Shown: piece by piece, positions 3,048 through 19,655 of the stretch
Layout of the letters: each line of letters begins with the position of its first letter
Position numbering within the stretch: position 1 is the stretch's first letter
Position numbers and translations under genes: made by a program
The notes under the pieces: generated by a model
Databases searched by the model: none
What the model saw: the letters and a program-made list of their open reading frames with translations, nothing else
Told to the model about the DNA's origin: nothing
From: a virus
Lineage: Duplodnaviria; Caudoviricetes
IMG/VR virus record: IMGVR_UViG_3300046786_000845
Location: 1 to 26,383 of that record
Reading direction: 5' to 3' (one strand)
Length of the DNA stretch: 26,383 nucleotides

Positions 3048-3527
3048 CTAGAGGCTCTCGTGATCATCTTGCGAGATGCCGATCAGGCTGATATTGCGCT
3101 CGGCGAATAATTCACGGCTGATGGCCAGCGAGGCCCGCCAGCGGTCCATCAGGTCCGCATCGGCGCCCAGGGGGATGACCACCCGCGCGATCCCCGCTTG
3201 AACGATGGCCGCGGCGCAGGCGTGACACGGCGGGAAAGGCCAGACGTAGAGCGAGGCCCCCTGGGCGCGCCGGGCGCCGATGCGGAGTAATGAGTTCTGC
3301 TCGGCGTGGAGGGTGAGGGCCAGCCGGGTGTCGCGATCCGCCAGGCGCGCGTCGGTGTCGGCGATGCCGGCGGGGAAGCCGTTGTAGCCCTGACTGAGTT
3401 GTTCCTTGTCGCGCGCGATGACGCAGCCAACCTGCGTCGAGGGGTCGTTACTCCAGCCGGCGTAGTGGCGGGCCAGGTCCAGCCAGCGGCGATCCCATTT
3501 GGTTTGGTCGATGGGGGCCTGACTCAT
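3048..3527 (-). CDS. dCMP deaminase
   Basis: SNDPSTQVGCVI, GYNGFP, HAEQN and PCHAC zinc-deaminase motifs; start reassigned to ATG 3527 (AGGAGG RBS, ATGA overlap). Confidence 0.92.
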   Translation of the reverse strand: MSQAPIDQTKWDRRWLDLARHYAGWSNDPSTQVGCVIARDKEQLSQGYNGFPAGIADTDARLADRDTRLALTLHAEQNSLLRIGARRAQGASLYVWPFPPCHACAAAIVQAGIARVVIPLGADADLMDRWRASLAISRELFAERNISLIGISQDDHESL

Positions 3528-3868
3528 GGCGTCCCCTCCTGGGGCTGATGCCACTGGTGCATGGCCCGCTCCACCCACTGATAGGCGCGGCCGTCCTTAA
3601 CCATGGCCCCGGTCACGCGCAGCAGGGTCCAGCCCGCCACGGCGGCGGCGTTGTACTTCTCGCAATCGGCCTCGAAGCCCTGGGGGCGGACATGCCGCCC
3701 GCCGCGATACAGGCCGCCCTCCACTTCCAGGGCCAGGTACTGGGTGGGCCAGGCGAAATCAAAGCGCCATTGCCGGCCGGGGTGAAAGCGGTATTCCCGC
3801 TCCGGGACCGGCAGGCCCAGGGCGCGCAGTTGCAGGGCGAGGGAGGCTTCCAGGGGGGAGGGGGGCAT
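3524..3868 (-). CDS. DUF559/Vsr-like PD-(D/E)xK endonuclease (possible resolvase)
   Basis: SPLE...EREYRFHPGRQWRFDFAWP...LEVEGG...H...DCEKYNAA...GWTLLRVT signature. Confidence 0.85.
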   Translation of the reverse strand: MPPSPLEASLALQLRALGLPVPEREYRFHPGRQWRFDFAWPTQYLALEVEGGLYRGGRHVRPQGFEADCEKYNAAAVAGWTLLRVTGAMVKDGRAYQWVERAMHQWHQPQEGTP

Positions 3869-3908: not shown

Positions 3909-4113
3909 AACTACAATAGCCGTCATTCCGTTTCGACGGCCTAAAGCTAGCTAGCAGTAGGAGAGAAGAATTGTTTGTAATAAAAGAGGGGGTACCCCCT
4001 TCCTGGACCCCGACCACGGGAAAGGGGTACCCCCCTGCGATTTGCAGTAAATTCTGGAAGCGTTGCGGTTGCTGGATTAAGGCCGTCGACGCCCGTCGAC
4101 GCCTATTGCGGTT
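3909..4113. repeat. Large imperfect concentric palindrome, putative replication origin
   Basis: Four paired blocks symmetric about position 4011: 3914-3924/4098-4108, 3933-3942/4080-4089, 3967-3972/4050-4055 and 3988-4003/4019-4034; immediately downstream of the primase gene. Confidence 0.7.
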
Positions 4114-6434
4114 TAATCGCATTCATTCACACCCTGGACCGCCACCCAGGCTTCACGTGGCCGCCCCCGCTGCCCGGCCTTGGCCAAGTTCTGCAACTGG
4201 GCCAGGCCCGAGTGATCCAGGGCGGTCAGGATCTCGCTCTGCTCGCGGGGACGCAGGCCATCGAAGGCGGCGGACTTGCGCCCCAGTTCCCGTTGGGTCA
4301 GGCCCTGGGCACCGGCGGCCCGCAGTAGTTCCAGGCACGCGTTCTTGACGCGACCGAAGCGGGAATCGGCAATCGCCCACTTGGCCCGCTCCACCAGGGA
4401 GGCATCGCAGGCCAGGACATAATCGATCGCCCACTGTACCTGGCTGGCGGAGATGGTGCGCAGCCCCATGCCCTCGGCCAGGCAGACCACCATGGCCAGG
4501 CGCATGGCCTTCTCGACGGTGCGCCCGAACAGGGCCTCCAGGCCATGGCGCTCCACGTCGTTCATGCGCGCGAGGATGTCCGCCTCGAAGGCCATCAGGG
4601 AGTGGCGGGCGCCGGCGGAGAAGTCCAGCACGATGGGCGTGGGCTCCAGATCGGCGCCCAGGTCATAGGGTAGCAGGTTGCCGTCCGCGGTCGGCTGACA
4701 GCCCACCGCCAGCAACCATTCCACCACATCCTCCGGCACCGGGGCCGGCTCCGGGTACCGGGAGGGCTGCCGCCCGATGGGCGATTCGCACACCAGGAAG
4801 CGCCCGAGGAAACCGTCGGCGATCCATTGCCGGGACAGGGACTCGTAGAAGGTGGAGGGCGTGGTCATGGCCAGGATGCCCAGGTGCGGCTTGCACACCT
4901 TACGCTGGCGGAAGGCCTCGCGCTGCTCCTTGGAGAGGGTCATCAGGCTATAGGCGGCCGGGCGCAGGGTGCCATGGGCGCGGCCAAAGGTCTCCATGAG
5001 GATGGAGATGGCATCGGCCTTGATCTGGTTGCCATGGGCCTGGGAGGACTCCATCAGCTTGCCGAACTCGTCGATGACGCTGATGTGGCCTGGCTTGTCC
5101 ATCAGGGCCGAGAACACGGCGCCGGGGCTGGTGTAGCCCGAGCCGCCAATGCGCCCTTCCAGACTGGCCGCGGCCAGGGTGTCCTCCAGGACGGTTTTGC
5201 CATGCTCCTTGCCGCTGGCAGTGACGGCGATCCCCAGCAGCCACAGCACCGGCCAATTGTCGCGCGTGGTGCGGTAGCGGCGGGCCATGGCGGTGGCCGC
5301 CGTGGCGATGGCGGCTTGCAGCAACAGATGGGGTTGGGGCTTGTGCGCGGTGGCCAGCCCCCAGGTCAGCAAGTGGCCCAGGACCCCGGGGGCCTGGGCC
5401 AGTAAATGATCCGGCCACAGCTCGGGCTCGCGGGCGGTATAACTCGGGGCGGCGGCTGGCGCCGGGACGGGCTCCGGCACGGGCGGGACGTACGGCGTGC
5501 CATTCACCCACCCCGCATCCATCGCCCGCTTGAACAGGCTCGCCAGTTGCACCCCCTGGCCGTTGTCCTTAAAGCTCCCCCACTTGTCGCGTAGCACCTG
5601 GGCGTCGAATTTCGCCCCGGTCGCGCTCCACTCATGCCACAGGCCGAAGGCATTGGCGGCGCCGGTACTGTGCAGCGCCATGCCGATCTGGAGCCACTGG
5701 TCATAGGTCTGATCGGGATCGAGATAGCCAAGGGCCTGGCGGATCTCCAGGCATTGACTGGCTGGCAGGGGCGGCGCAATGCCGGCGGTACTGACCAACG
5801 GGGCCGCCTGACTGGCGGGCGTAAAATAGGCCACGATCTCCGCCAGGGCCCGCGGGTCGATCGGGCGCAGTTCTCCCGGCGCCTCATCCAGATGGTGCCC
5901 GGTCACGGTCACATAGCGCCCGGTAACCCAGCCCTGCAAGCGCGGGGTGGTGATGGCGCGCTCCAGCGTCCCAAACCCGATGACCCGCACTCCCGTACCG
6001 GACGGCGATATCTCGGCGTAGGTTCCGAGCCGCTGAATGGCCGCCAGGACATTGGCATCAATGACCCCGGTATGCCCCGAGCGCACATGGTCGAAATCCA
6101 GCAGAATGATCTGCGTCTCCTTGCGCACCATGAAGCCGATACCATCCCAGCCGCTGTCATCCTCCTGATAGCCCGCCAGGGCGGTGTAATAATCCGTCCA
6201 GGTGCTGGGATTGATCGACGATGCCTTGTGCCCCTGCACGGTATAGGGCACCTTGTTCATGGCCCCGCCCGCCTTGGGCTCCGCCTTCCACACCACCCAC
6301 TGGTCCAGGTGCTTGATCGCCTCCGGGATCAATTCCGGGCGCACCGGCAATCCCAGCCAGACGTTATGCTCATCCACGAGCGGGCTCCTCAGGCTGGTGT
6401 CGGTCTTAACAGAAGTCGGGAGTAGGGTCGTCAT
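4113..6434 (-). CDS. Primase-polymerase (AEP, NrS-1-like N-terminus) + PriCT-2 + DUF3987-type helicase-like ATPase
   Basis: QWVVW...KVPY...STW...GIGF...LDFDH...YAEISPSGTG (prim-pol); YDQWLQIGMALH...WHEWS...KWGSF (PriCT-2); AVTASGKE Walker A and VIDEFG Walker B; C-terminal wHTH-like region. Confidence 0.88.
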   Translation of the reverse strand: MTTLLPTSVKTDTSLRSPLVDEHNVWLGLPVRPELIPEAIKHLDQWVVWKAEPKAGGAMNKVPYTVQGHKASSINPSTWTDYYTALAGYQEDDSGWDGIGFMVRKETQIILLDFDHVRSGHTGVIDANVLAAIQRLGTYAEISPSGTGVRVIGFGTLERAITTPRLQGWVTGRYVTVTGHHLDEAPGELRPIDPRALAEIVAYFTPASQAAPLVSTAGIAPPLPASQCLEIRQALGYLDPDQTYDQWLQIGMALHSTGAANAFGLWHEWSATGAKFDAQVLRDKWGSFKDNGQGVQLASLFKRAMDAGWVNGTPYVPPVPEPVPAPAAAPSYTAREPELWPDHLLAQAPGVLGHLLTWGLATAHKPQPHLLLQAAIATAATAMARRYRTTRDNWPVLWLLGIAVTASGKEHGKTVLEDTLAAASLEGRIGGSGYTSPGAVFSALMDKPGHISVIDEFGKLMESSQAHGNQIKADAISILMETFGRAHGTLRPAAYSLMTLSKEQREAFRQRKVCKPHLGILAMTTPSTFYESLSRQWIADGFLGRFLVCESPIGRQPSRYPEPAPVPEDVVEWLLAVGCQPTADGNLLPYDLGADLEPTPIVLDFSAGARHSLMAFEADILARMNDVERHGLEALFGRTVEKAMRLAMVVCLAEGMGLRTISASQVQWAIDYVLACDASLVERAKWAIADSRFGRVKNACLELLRAAGAQGLTQRELGRKSAAFDGLRPREQSEILTALDHSGLAQLQNLAKAGQRGRPREAWVAVQGVNECD

Positions 6435-7330: not shown

Positions 7331-7540
7331 CTAGGCAGCCTTGGCTGGCGTGCAGTGATCGAGCGCCCGTTCCAGTGCCAGCAGGGAGCCAATCGAGGGA
7401 TTTTTGAGCGCCCCGGTGGCGAATTTATTGACCCAGGAAAAGGAGATTTCCGGGCCAGCCAGGTGGGCGATCTCGCGCTGGGTAACGGGGGCCTCCCGTA
7501 GGCGGGTCCGCAGGTCAGAGACGTAGGTTTCTAGGTTCAT
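7331..7540 (-). CDS. Cro/Xre-like HTH regulator (69 aa), probably leaderless
   Basis: VTQREIAHLAG.EISFSWVNKFATG..KNPSIGSLLAL is an HTH_XRE pattern; ATG at 7540 lies 7 nt after a -10 box. Confidence 0.85.
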   Translation of the reverse strand: MNLETYVSDLRTRLREAPVTQREIAHLAGPEISFSWVNKFATGALKNPSIGSLLALERALDHCTPAKAA

Positions 7541-7547
7541 GGGTAGT

Positions 7548-7577
7548 AGCATAGTGCAGATAATAGGACTTGTGCAA
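7548..7577 (-). promoter_or_regulatory. Leftward sigma70-like promoter
   Basis: -35 TTGCAC (7577-7572), 18-bp spacer, -10 TATGCT (7553-7548). Confidence 0.65.
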
Positions 7578-16075: not shown

Positions 16076-16959
16076 TGCGCAAATTCTGGACCCCGGAATA
16101 TCTGGCCTGGCTGGCGGCGACCTATCGCCAGCAGCGCATCGCGGCCATCCCGGCGCTGTTTGAAGCGCAGTTTGGGATCGCCGTTACCGAATCGTCCGTC
16201 AAGTCCGCCATCATGAACTATCGCCTGCCCAGCGGGCGCCCCAAGGGCCTGCTCCCGGGTGAGCGGCCTGGGCCTACCTGGAGCAAAGAGCGGCTTGACT
16301 GGCTGCGCGCGCACCGGCCGGCCATGCAGATCCCGGCCCTGACCGCCGCCTTTAACCTCCACTTCGGGACTGATTTACAGCCGCACAGCATCGCCAATGC
16401 CATCGGCCGCCATCAGATCCCCGGCCCGGCGGACACCCGCTTTCAGCCGGGATTGGTGCCCTGGAATAAGGGCCTGGCCGGCTATCGCGCGGGCGGGCGC
16501 TCCGCCGAGACGCGCTGGAAGCCCGGCAACCGCGTCTGGCATCAGATGCCCGTGTGGAGCTACCGGCAGGAGACCGACGGCTGCTGGTATTTCAAATTTC
16601 GGGAGGAGGCCCCGCCCGGCTTTTCGCGCCGGGATTGGGTCGCTGTCCATCGCCTCAACTGGGAGGCGGCCCATGGGCCCCTCGCCGCCGGGCAGGTGGT
16701 GATTATGCTCGACACCGACCCCAGTCATTGCGAGCTGGACAATCTGGCCTGTCTGACGCGCCGCGAGCTGGTGTATTTCAACAACCTCAATCACGCCGTG
16801 CCGCCCGAGCGGGAACTGCGCCGGGCCCTGGTGGCGCGAGTCAAGTTGCTGGCGGCGGCGCATGGCCGGGCGGAGGGGCTGGGCATGACCCCGCAACAGC
16901 GGCGGGCGGTGCTGGGGGTGATGCGGCGGCCCGAGCGGGTTTATGGGCAACGGGTTTAA
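16075..16959 (+). CDS. HNH_3-like endonuclease-domain protein with duplicated N-terminal DNA-binding-like repeats
   Basis: Two W(T/S)xExLxWL repeats; TRFQPG..PWNKG; VHRLNWEAAHGP...DNL.CLTRREL...N (degenerate HNH). Confidence 0.75.
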   Translation: MRKFWTPEYLAWLAATYRQQRIAAIPALFEAQFGIAVTESSVKSAIMNYRLPSGRPKGLLPGERPGPTWSKERLDWLRAHRPAMQIPALTAAFNLHFGTDLQPHSIANAIGRHQIPGPADTRFQPGLVPWNKGLAGYRAGGRSAETRWKPGNRVWHQMPVWSYRQETDGCWYFKFREEAPPGFSRRDWVAVHRLNWEAAHGPLAAGQVVIMLDTDPSHCELDNLACLTRRELVYFNNLNHAVPPERELRRALVARVKLLAAAHGRAEGLGMTPQQRRAVLGVMRRPERVYGQRV

Positions 16960-16964
16960 CCCAG

Positions 16965-17198
16965 ATGCTTGCGCAAAATCGCGTTACCGACTGGGGAACG
17001 CCCCATCCGCAATGGGTCTGCGAACATTGCGGGATCAGCAACAATTCTTGGGACAAGAACGGCAACCTGGCCCATGTGTACCGTCAAGCCATGGCCCTGG
17101 GCGGACCCCCACTAGACCTGTGCGGGCTCTGCCGGGCATCCCTGTCTATCACCAAAACCGCCTCCCCACAACAGGGCGACCTGTTCTTATCCTGCTGA
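16965..17198 (+). CDS. Small CxxC-CxxC protein with a C-terminal QGDLF motif
   Basis: 77 aa from ATG 16965; CEHC and CGLC; fills the gap after the HNH gene. Confidence 0.5.
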   Translation: MLAQNRVTDWGTPHPQWVCEHCGISNNSWDKNGNLAHVYRQAMALGGPPLDLCGLCRASLSITKTASPQQGDLFLSC

Positions 17199-17206
17199 TA
17201 ACGGCC

Positions 17207-17440
17207 ATGCCCATGAGCTCCACAACCACCACCCTTGATCTCTGGCCACGTCAGCCGCACTCCACCCGACCCCAGCGTCGCCCGCTCGTTTGCCGTGGTG
17301 TCTATGGCGCCCCCAGCGGGGACGGGCTAGACTCCCTGGCTCGTCTCCTCCTGTCACTCGCCGCCGATGAAGCCGACCAGCCCGCTCGCCAGCCCGACCC
17401 ACGCCTGCGCCTACCTACGATCCAGCAAGGACCGGCATGA
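17207..17440 (+). CDS. Small ORF overlapping the recombinase start (RDF/excisionase candidate)
   Basis: 77 aa from ATG 17207; amphipathic DGLDSLARLLLSLA; position only, no recognised family. Confidence 0.4.
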   Translation: MPMSSTTTTLDLWPRQPHSTRPQRRPLVCRGVYGAPSGDGLDSLARLLLSLAADEADQPARQPDPRLRLPTIQQGPA

Positions 17441-18950
17441 TCTCAGCCTGGACGCCCAGCGTCGGGCGCTCCAGGACTACGCCCACGAGCAGGGTCTGGC
17501 CATCGTCGCCGAATTCGCGGACGCGGTAGAGTCAGGCAAGGACGACGACCGGCCCGGTTTTCAATCCCTGCTGCGGGCCCTGCGCGATCCCGCCCGCGCC
17601 TGGGCGGTGATCCTGGCCCTCGACACCAGCCGCATTGCCCGCCGCCGCCATCTGGCCCTCATCTTCGAGCACGAAGCCGAGAAGGCCGGGGTGCGCATCC
17701 TCTACAAGTCGGTGCCCGATACCGATCCCATCACCGGGATGTTGCTGCGCTCCATCCTCCAGGCCATGGACGAATGGCACTCCCTGACTTCCAAGGCCAA
17801 GGGCCTGGCTGGCATGGCCGAGAGCGTCAAGCAAGGCTGGCGGGCGGGTGGCCAGGCGCCGCGCGGCTACCGGCTTGAGCATCAACCAACCGAGACCTTG
17901 CGCGACGGCCAACCGGTGCTGCGCTCCAAGCTGGTTCCGGGTCCTGATTCTGAAGCAGTGGCCAGCTACTTGAAGGCGCGGGCGTCGGGCAAGCCCCGGG
18001 GCCTCGCCAGCCAGTTATCCGGGATTGTTGGATCACTCAACGAAATGGAGTGGCAGGCTCTGACCTATGCCGGCCACACCACCTGGGGGATGCACCACGA
18101 ACACCGCCCCGGGGGCTACGTCGGCGGAATCAAGCGCAAGCCGCGGGCCGAGTGGCACTTGACCCGCGACACTCACCCCGCCTTCATCACTGACGCCGAG
18201 GCCGAGGCGATCCTGACCCGGCTGGAGGCGCGGGCCGGGCTGCGCACCCGGTCGGGGGATCGTGTCTATCTCCTCTCGGGCCTGCTTCAGGATCCCCAGG
18301 GCCAGCCTTTCTCGGGCGAGACCAGCAAGGGTCAGTCTGCCTATCGGCTGGGCAAGGGCGGGCGGATTGCGGCGCGCATCATCGAGGGCGCGGTCCTGGA
18401 TCAGGTGTTTGCCGATCTCGCCGCGCCAGACGTGGCCAAGGCCATCGCGGAGCGGATGCGCCAGGCGGCAGCCCCCGCCAGCAAGCCGCGCGACCTGGCG
18501 GGGCTGAAGCGCAAGCTGGGCACCCTGGATGGCAAGATTCTTCGGCTGGTGGACCTGATCGCGGCGGCGGGCACGGCGGCCCCCGCTTATCAGCGGGCCA
18601 TTGCCGGGATGGAGCTGGAGCGCGCAGCCATGGCGATGGAACTGGCGCACGCGGCGAGCGAGAGCCGCCAGGCGGAGGTGATCCGCGCCTGGACGGTGGC
18701 GGATGTGGCCCGGCTGCTGGCCAGTCTGCGCAATGCCCTGGAGACGGATCTGGCGGAAGACCGTATCCTCGCCGCGCGGGAAGCGCTGGCGGGGATCGTG
18801 GAAAGGATCACCCTTGATTTAGAATCAAGGGCTTGGGAGATCCATTACAAATTGCATACCGGGGTTAAGATGGCGTCCCCACGGGGGAGCCGTCTAGCCC
18901 CGGTGATTTGGATCAGCCGGGGTCGCCTGCCGCACCGACGAGCGGCATGA
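17367..18950 (+). CDS. Large serine recombinase (integrase)
   Basis: AYLRSS catalytic Ser motif, DRPGFQSLL, DTSRIARR, GGQAPRGY recombinase domain, HPAFI, YLLSGLL, coiled coil. Confidence 0.93.
   Translation: MKPTSPLASPTHACAYLRSSKDRHDLSLDAQRRALQDYAHEQGLAIVAEFADAVESGKDDDRPGFQSLLRALRDPARAWAVILALDTSRIARRRHLALIFEHEAEKAGVRILYKSVPDTDPITGMLLRSILQAMDEWHSLTSKAKGLAGMAESVKQGWRAGGQAPRGYRLEHQPTETLRDGQPVLRSKLVPGPDSEAVASYLKARASGKPRGLASQLSGIVGSLNEMEWQALTYAGHTTWGMHHEHRPGGYVGGIKRKPRAEWHLTRDTHPAFITDAEAEAILTRLEARAGLRTRSGDRVYLLSGLLQDPQGQPFSGETSKGQSAYRLGKGGRIAARIIEGAVLDQVFADLAAPDVAKAIAERMRQAAAPASKPRDLAGLKRKLGTLDGKILRLVDLIAAAGTAAPAYQRAIAGMELERAAMAMELAHAASESRQAEVIRAWTVADVARLLASLRNALETDLAEDRILAAREALAGIVERITLDLESRAWEIHYKLHTGVKMASPRGSRLAPVIWISRGRLPHRRAA
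18858..18904. other. attP: Putative attP inside the integrase gene, with a tRNA-Glu 3'-end core
   Basis: 47-bp imperfect inverted repeat (ACCGGGG...CCCC-AC-GGGG...CCCCGGT); 18871-18886 on the minus strand reads CCCCGTGGGGACGCCA, a tRNA-Glu-type 3' end including CCA. Confidence 0.75.
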
Positions 18951-19010
18951 TGCCGCCCCCAGCCATCGGCTGGACAAATAGCCCGATCCAGGACACCGAC
19001 AGGAAGCGCA

Positions 19011-19655
19011 CTAGCGGATCTTGAGGATATACATGCGCGCTGAGACCCTGGCTGCCGAGGTGCTGCCGCTGGCCATCCTGGCATCGAGGTAATAGGTCTG
19101 ATTGCTGGTGATGGTTTCGGTGTACGGCAAGAAGGCGGTGCCGCCGATGGTGCCATCGCCGGAGCCGCCGGCGGCATAACAGCCATACACATCCTCCACC
19201 AGAATGGTCGAGGTGCCTTTGCGTAGCTGTAGCTCGATACCGTACTGGCTAGCCCCGCTCGCCCGGTAGGCATAGCCGGTAAACTGCGCCAGGATGAAGA
19301 TGACGGTACTGGACGCGATGCCCGTGGTGGTGATGCTCAACTGGCCCGCGAAGCTGGTGGACAGGCTACCGGATGCCGTCTCCACGTCCGTGCCCACGAA
19401 GCCGCAGACTGCCGGCAGGCGGGCCAGGTCCAGGGTGCCGCTGGTGAGGATGGTCGCCGGTAGATTGGGGATGCGCGCCGCGTCGAGGGTTCCGGAGGCG
19501 ATTTTGCTGGCGGGGAGGGCGGGGACCCCGGCCAGGGGTCGCACCTTGTAGAGCTTGTTGGTGCCGCTGGGCTGGACGATGCTCCAGTCGTTGACGCCGT
19601 CCACGGCGGTGGCCTCGTTGGGCAGGTTGCCGGGCAGGAGGTAACGGCTCGTCAT
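19011..19655 (-). CDS. Short tail fibre / receptor-binding protein candidate
   Basis: 214 aa; tandem 18-aa repeat LPASKIASGTLDAARIPN / LPATILTSGTLDLARLPA; Ser/Thr/Gly-rich beta C-terminus; last gene of the tail operon. Confidence 0.65.
   Translation of the reverse strand: MTSRYLLPGNLPNEATAVDGVNDWSIVQPSGTNKLYKVRPLAGVPALPASKIASGTLDAARIPNLPATILTSGTLDLARLPAVCGFVGTDVETASGSLSTSFAGQLSITTTGIASSTVIFILAQFTGYAYRASGASQYGIELQLRKGTSTILVEDVYGCYAAGGSGDGTIGGTAFLPYTETITSNQTYYLDARMASGSTSAARVSARMYILKIR

Follow-up and report, generated by a model that had tools for sequence, protein, structure and literature searches.

The exchange of a protein tail or tag through integration is a principle that is already known, with the integrase of Mx8, the repressor of BPs and the recombinase DsiB as described cases. 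In Mx8, the attachment site on the phage (attP) lies inside the integrase gene int, and integration provides a new 3' end, yielding an enzyme with altered activity (IntP/IntX; PMC6070905, PMC4383910). In mycobacteriophage BPs, integration strips an ssrA-like tag from the repressor, and the BPs integrase bears a proteolysis signal (PMC4557955). DsiB from Dehalococcoides is a serine integrase of about 540 amino acids, whose gene overlaps attP/attL with its 3' end and runs antisense into the tDNA, an arrangement for which the authors suspected a regulatory role (PMC3146451). The locus described here belongs to a virus of the Caudoviricetes (IMG/VR record IMGVR_UViG_3300046786_000845); the window is the whole stretch analysed, a single virus record of 26,383 base pairs (bp) that is read as free-form phage DNA. 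It encodes a large serine integrase with attP inside the end of its gene, and comparison with relatives reveals tRNA-Glu as the target, shows the gene in its two states and the tRNA left intact by insertion, and traces the stop codon to the antisense of the anticodon. From these sequences we infer that the two forms of the enzyme would differ in stability or directionality. The first-pass annotation of the window had named BPs as the precedent; Mx8 and DsiB, missing from its list, also precede.

Mx8 targets a tRNA-Asp gene and exchanges a segment much longer than that in the window, and the integrase of BPs is a tyrosine integrase. The family of the window integrase shares with Mx8 the intragenic attP and the replacement of the C-terminus upon integration into a tRNA gene, but the Mx8 enzyme is a tyrosine rather than a serine recombinase, and the accessible parts of the Mx8 accounts mention no degron (PMC6070905, PMC4383910). 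With DsiB, the family has in common a serine integrase gene whose end overlaps the att site and runs antisense into the target. DsiB differs in targeting tmRNA (ssrA), in residing on non-phage islands and in being CcrB-like with a second recombinase, DsiA (PMC3146451), whereas the target here is tRNA-Glu in 17 of 17 genome loci. The C-terminus of DsiB is described as variable, and the accessible portion of that account defines no free-form tail, degron or recombination directionality factor (RDF), the two systems being set side by side by description (PMC3146451). No second small, DsiA-like serine recombinase was found among 38 open reading frames (ORFs) of the window, a scan that covered part of the ORFs of a partial contig. 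The sequence signature of an ssrA-like terminal tag is present and is removed by integration, and it would be a putative proteolysis signal; the attP of BPs cuts the repressor gene and leaves the integrase gene uncut (PMC4557955), whereas attP of the window lies in the integrase gene and not in the repressor-like gene. Archaeal suicidal integrases of the SSV1/pTN3 type likewise carry att inside the integrase gene, but they belong to the tyrosine family and are split into two inactive pieces (PMC8371274), while only the last ~20 residues change here. In its mode of action, the window integrase resembles Mx8 Int and, as far as removal of a tag goes, the BPs repressor, but it belongs to neither system. 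In the literature searched, which was mostly non-subscription and without supplements, no description of a tRNA-Glu-targeting serine integrase family with such a tail was found; the supplements of PMC10083194, PMC13626063 and PMC12884075 may list members.

The integrase gene spans positions 17367..18950 on the plus strand and encodes the free (attP) form of 527 amino acids, ending in MASPRG-SRLAPVIWISRGRLPHRRAA before the stop codon, exactly as the first-pass annotation gave it. Its identity as a large serine integrase is concluded from a Pfam Resolvase match (PF00239, E-value 1.5e-20, residues 14-157), its PHROG family (phrog_95, integrase) and the Foldseek matches of its AlphaFold model, the top ones being the integrases of SPbeta, Bxb1 and phiC31 (E-value 1e-14). 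The predicted catalytic domain, two C-terminal DNA-binding domains (DBD1, and DBD2 with a coiled coil) and att geometry place it in this class. The Y-x-R-x-S motif is present, with Y16, R18, S19 and S20 invariant in 30 sequences, and the DBD2 model aligns to 9dxh_A (Z 10.9, root-mean-square deviation (rmsd) 10.6, 194 aligned) and 4kis_C (Z 9.8, rmsd 10.0, 157 aligned). A wide VIA search returned mainly coiled coils and contributed no further information. Zinc-binding cysteines in DBD2 are typical of large serine integrases and are treated as non-defining; the window integrase does not have them, its sole cysteine being residue 14, and a conserved cysteine is absent from DBD2 across 30 sequences, with the fold kept. 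PF07508 gave no match on the window integrase itself, yet is listed for many homologues. The likeness to the integrases of phiC31, Bxb1, LI/A118 and SPbeta (SprA) extends to domain order, fold, an attP of ~46-48 bp, a central dinucleotide, an attB (bacterial attachment site) motif ~5 bp closer, and a probable small RDF (PMC11722253, PMC12286644). In contrast to these canonical enzymes, the window integrase has an intragenic attP, a tRNA target, a DBD2 free of zinc cysteines, and an extra removable strand and tag after DBD2. Among cultured phages, 35 records matched, none covering >80% of the query and all with <35% identity; therefore, no characterised isolate was found. A class-wide search of 400 genomes, which is a sample and not a census, yielded a homologue in four.

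The attP site is an imperfect inverted repeat of 47 bp (18858..18904, plus strand), the outer motifs of which (18858-18864 and 18898-18904) are predicted DBD2 binding sites. It contains a 16-nucleotide (nt) block, TGGCGTCCCCACGGGG, found at 18871-18886 as noted in the first-pass annotation; on the minus strand, this block matches tRNA-Glu perfectly over its 3' end (the 3' strands of T-stem and acceptor, and CCA), and its reverse complement forms the 3' end of the ARAGORN-called tRNA-Glu genes beside the homologues. The likely crossover dinucleotide, AC at 18881..18882 (plus strand), corresponds to tRNA positions 65/66 at the T-stem/acceptor junction and lies 22 codons ahead of the integrase stop. 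While the repeat itself was confirmed, its proposed centring on AC was not, as the outer repeat has its centre at a single A, position 18881. The outer motifs are thus 1 bp out of register with the AC-centred axis, and the inner CCCC-AC-GGGG is AC-centred. In the free-form relatives, attP is symmetric about the dinucleotide in 30 of 39 cases, and an offset of -1 occurs in eight, mostly of the window's clade. The palindrome was rejected as a stand-alone signal: its 14 matches out of 22 arm positions are equalled at 14 of 26,323 window positions, and a list of the window's 25 longest inverted repeats does not include it. The non-random character of attP comes from the identity with 16 nt of tRNA-Glu and from the junctions in relatives.

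Counted from the tRNA 3' end, the core dinucleotide occupies the 12th and 11th bases, where CCCC-NN-GGGG provides a natural symmetry. The same four dinucleotides (AC, AA, AG and TA) occur in free and prophage forms. In the Silanimonas element G004, the identity between the prophage ends breaks off directly past the core dinucleotide; the left limit of the crossover cannot be mapped from sequence, since a match in the CCA arm is obligatory. In 26 of 35 prophage junctions, the outer motif is 5 bp nearer to the core in the tRNA arm, and an attB DBD2 motif ~5 bp closer than in attP is a signature of large serine integrases (PMC11722253). The window carries no tRNA gene, and the 16-nt block in attP would restore the tRNA upon integration.

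Both states of the gene were found among relatives. The protein set comprised the best 120 of 1,280 matches, with 18 of prophage type, defined by a protein end of the G-[FIV]-E-P-x-x-x-P type, 97 with a longer tail, and five unclassified or unanchored sequences that were left out. In the loci set, 100 were examined and 80 passed a filter for a near-full match and the core, giving 36 prophage-type and 39 free-type loci after de-duplication. Homologues in bacterial genomes amounted to 21 loci, 17 of which include the 3' end of the gene. All 17 show a tRNA-Glu junction, and none has a free tail. The gene overlaps an intact tRNA-Glu on the opposite strand in 14, while the contig stops within the tRNA in L004, a 3' fragment is present in L014, and L009 is reversed. 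The expected prophage homologues beside an intact tRNA-Glu were thereby obtained, and neither another site nor an unchanged C-terminus occurred among the 17. The prophage forms mostly end in ASPRGFEPxxP, as had been predicted, overlapping an intact tRNA-Glu and with the core repeated at the far end of the prophage. In six loci, including TTC and CTC isoacceptors, the prophage stop codon TGA is formed by the last two anticodon bases and the next A, read in antisense. Prophage-form ORFs are intact with a clean stop in most loci; the integrase of L019 is broken.

Free and prophage types interleave on the tree of the 36 and 39 loci, and two loci that are 90% identical (L134, free, and L135, prophage) are in opposite states. 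The possibility of two lineages instead of two states was rejected, as both types are mixed on the tree. Hand inspection of 10 of the 20 filtered-out loci revealed five prophage-type and four free-type loci and one without the core (L113). Ten of the truncated prophage-type viral records are proviruses according to IMG/VR. In the window, the swappable tail present in the free form only comprises residues 508-527 (18888..18950, plus strand); on integration, it would give way to about seven tRNA-antisense residues of the FEPxxP type, keeping 507 of the 527 residues.

Some side observations concern the target and the relatives. The target tRNA-Glu is usually the last of a tRNA-Ala(GGC)-tRNA-Glu pair (L002, L003, L005-L007, L010-L013, L016, L019 and L042), which runs head-on with the prophage integrase, the end of the integrase mRNA being antisense to the tRNA. 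What the integrase of L014 runs into at its end (~2942-2990) is a 3' fragment of tRNA-Glu of ~48 nt and not the whole gene, a picture resembling tandem insertion of a second element at that tRNA. The relative P0024, 66% identical and named from Chromatium okenii, has a free-form tail.

The core was mapped at both ends of seven elements, namely G005 (Lysobacter), G002 (Solilutibacter silvestris), G004 (Silanimonas), G003 (Herminiimonas), G426 (Methylophilaceae, reversed), G421 and G422. The ends are 35.5-49.5 kb apart and share 12-18 identical bases; the far-end duplication anticipated in the first-pass annotation is present, though with this variable length and not as a fixed 16 bp. In silico joining of the ends produced an open frame with a new tail in 7/7, about 14-30 residues past the core, and in silico excision left an intact tRNA-Glu at the empty site in 6/7, G421 being cut by the contig end. 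Terminase and tail genes lie inside three prophage intervals that were scanned, and a terminase in the G426 interval. For 10 IMG/VR proviruses, which are trimmed at gene ends, for three of five further records, and for L002, L013, L070 and L010, no far end was found.

The cassette of integrase, RDF candidate and attP occurs on unrelated phages: P2-like (G005, G004), contractile-tailed (G002), and the window phage with a YuA gp49-like gene. The prophages of L002, L012, L006 and L011 were compared with the window in this respect. Since the phage types are unrelated, the cassette moves as a module. In other relatives (L009/G426, L035, L036, L039, L106, L107 and L115), the orientation of attP with respect to the integrase gene is reversed, and these phages therefore insert in the opposite orientation. 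Three reversed free forms carry a tRNA-Asp(GTC) gene directly after the integrase stop (L036:4186-4262, L039:3064-3140 and L107:4109-4185), which integration would place immediately downstream of the host tRNA-Glu and in the same direction. In L004, L006, L034, L046 and L139, translation passes through the att core in a different frame (WRPHG...), and the prophage tail has 14-15 residues; a basic Ala-Ala tail is still present in two of the three free forms of this kind.

The free-form tail of the window ends in RRAA (18936..18947, plus strand), which is degron-like and predicted to be disordered. The earlier suggestion of a degron-like -AA tail agrees with the composition of the free forms, in which a basic, acid-free Ala-Ala end is strongly enriched. 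Among the 97 free tails, 43 end in Ala-Ala (7 of 267 background ORFs; 0 of 18 prophage forms), 61 end in Ala (39/267; 0/18) and 77 have at least two Arg/Lys in the last six residues (63/267; 0/18), while Asp/Glu in the last five residues is found in three (107/267 in the background). The Ala-Ala enrichment corresponds to a Fisher P of about 1e-21, uncorrected for kinship; at 60% identity, 9 of 20 end in Ala-Ala. In the loci set, 14 of 38 free forms have this end. Basic Ala-ending tails recur with att in another frame (L034, L139) or reversed (L107, G426), and the tail signal is therefore not a by-product of att DNA. A basic-plus-hydrophobic tail end resembles the MuA-type ClpX motif. The ssrA degron recognised by ClpX ends in Ala-Ala (PMC10638403).

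The tail is more than a putative degron, as it also carries a predicted β-strand (residues 513-520; 18903..18926, plus strand), with conserved V513, W515 and hydrophobic positions 519/521. In the AlphaFold model, a disordered linker precedes the strand and the final residues are again disordered; a model of DBD2 only gave a predicted local distance difference test score (pLDDT) of 92 and a predicted template modelling score (pTM) of 0.82, and the tail block has a pLDDT of 93. Trp or Phe occupies position 515 in 85 of 94 sequences, and W515 and the hydrophobic positions 519/521 are outside att DNA. In 14 of 16 alignments to solved integrases, the match stops at window residues 495-503, which argues that the tail strand is probably an addition to canonical DBD2.

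These observations are probably best explained by a tail swap at tRNA-Glu that removes a protease tag and leaves the prophage-encoded integrase as the stable form. ClpXP, or a similar protease that reads protein tails, would degrade the basic, Ala-ending tail of the free form and so keep the integrase low during lytic growth, even though its gene comes last in the early replication operon. Integration would take place when tail proteolysis is outrun. Upon induction, the same operon would supply tag-less, stable integrase together with the overlapping RDF candidate, leading to prophage excision. A tail degron would act at the protein level as the sib retroregulation of lambda does at the RNA level.

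Several points weigh against this explanation. Ala-Ala is lacking in 54 of the 97 free tails, and the seven tails obtained by excision end in Ala (three), Gly (three) or Arg (one), none in Ala-Ala; a strict ssrA-type signal is therefore not universal. The 267 background ORFs were called mechanically from the same loci and include some false genes. The prophage form of L009 has a host-dependent extension of ~100 codons past the tRNA and no clean short end, and L113 is a near-full-length homologue with a different C-terminus in which no att core was found. Neither a sigma-70 promoter nor an intrinsic terminator that would delimit the transcript was found in 16800-19300. The closest prophage-form protein among the best 120 of the 1,280 matches, P0021, is 67% identical. 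No attL/attR junction of the window's own phage was present in the contigs of 8 of the 24 listed runs (18300-19400); one X20 piece stops at 18882 without loose letters and gives no evidence of a joint. Because its own junction is absent from these eight runs, integration of the window phage itself is deduced from its relatives.

A second reading concerns directionality and depends on a small conserved ORF at 17207..17440 (plus strand; start at 17207 or 17213), which is a likely RDF gene candidate by its size, position and conservation. Its product has a strand-Gly-Pro-amphipathic helix arrangement. The ORF overlaps the integrase start in the +2 frame, a frame that is open in 77 of 87 loci compared with 11 and 8 for the other frames, and its motif occurs in 55 loci compared with 4 and 2. 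No PHROG family was assigned, and no atlas match reached 0.9, the best score of 0.80 being a lead at most. RDFs bind DBD2 near the base of the coiled coil, and extra C-terminal β-strands have been proposed to block the RDF site in other large serine integrases (PMC12286644). In SPbeta, F532 is flanked by the RDF helix (PMC11722253), and this residue aligns near window residue 496. Probably placed beyond canonical DBD2, confidently predicted and conserved beyond att DNA, the tail strand could pack on the RDF site of DBD2, with the free form ignoring the RDF and integrating, and the tail-less form binding the RDF and excising. The overlap of the RDF candidate with the integrase start indicates that both are probably made together. 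On the other hand, the model does not give the pairing partner of the strand, two of the 16 alignments (9dxd_A and 9iu2_A) extend into the tail, the rmsd values of the alignments are high (3-14 Å) owing to the coiled coil, and the small ORF is without a family match. Such a switch is possible, but we regard it as less likely than not.

Masking of the RDF site is compatible with tag removal, with the tail strand acting as a second layer that would cover this site, and integration possibly unmasks it. In the most complete version, the free tail would be both protease tag and RDF-site shield, the RDF would always be co-translated, and the backward Glu anticodon would supply the stop; through integration, an enzyme that is unstable and can only integrate would become stable and able to excise, without separate transcriptional control of directionality. 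Taken with all its parts, this combination is speculative and somewhat improbable.

Two further explanations fit less well than tag removal. The tail strand may be needed for a folded, active DBD2, in which case the prophage form would be weak or inactive, in the manner of the archaeal suicidal integrases and of what has been proposed for DsiB, and would require the strand of the RDF candidate or a free-form copy to excise. The conservation of a hydrophobic strand in the tail is consistent with this, as are the altered activity of the Mx8 enzyme after integration (PMC6070905) and the suggestion by McMurdie et al. that dsiB is perhaps fully functional only on the circular element (PMC3146451). 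We consider it unlikely, since the shared part already covers the whole canonical DBD2 of the LI, SPbeta, Bxb1 and phiC31 integrases, the clean prophage-form ORFs speak against an inactive product, and the basic Ala-Ala end is left unexplained. Still less probable is a neutral overlap, in which attP would have drifted into the end of the gene for the sake of compactness, either tail would be tolerated and Ala-Ala would be a constitutive tag whose use does not depend on the state: the att arms do set Thr-Gly and Pro-Val around the core, and tail length (8-36 residues), tail sequence, att frame and att orientation vary, but tag and strand lie wholly within the removed part, recur across frames and orientations, and are absent from 18/18 prophage forms.

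In the window, the integrase gene is the last of a plus-strand early/replication operon that encodes AAA_24, DUF669, a PD-(D/E)XK nuclease, a helicase and an HNH protein (Pfam), and it is convergent with the tail genes. The repressor-like helix-turn-helix (HTH) gene is located at 7331-7552, as assigned by a Pfam/PHROG scan. Left of the repressor region lie genes for a dCMP deaminase (3048-3578), a Mor-family activator (2315-2755) and a PriCT-2/DUF3987 primase-like protein (4113-6434), all on the minus strand. Right of 19013, the DNA is common to other contigs with a differing left side in four of eight runs, and contig depth is higher there; the contigs diverging at this position belong to related phages that share this tail gene end but have a different module next to it. 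The window phage occurs in sludge, wastewater and freshwater metagenomes. Its host is likely a beta- or gammaproteobacterium, based on the tRNA sequence and the hosts of relatives.

The timing of phage integration versus excision is usually explained by separate control of the integrase and RDF genes, whereas here recombination rewrites the enzyme itself. The question of C-terminal control has been raised for SprA and the SCCmec recombinases (PMC12286644), and the two natural isoforms of this family allow a direct test of C-terminal control of serine integrase stability and directionality. Island finders that assume tyrosine integrases at tRNA genes can miss such integrases, as can those relying on PF07508 alone, because the window integrase has no PF07508 match. 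When integrase genes are cloned from prophages, they come with the tRNA-derived tail and may behave differently from the phage form.
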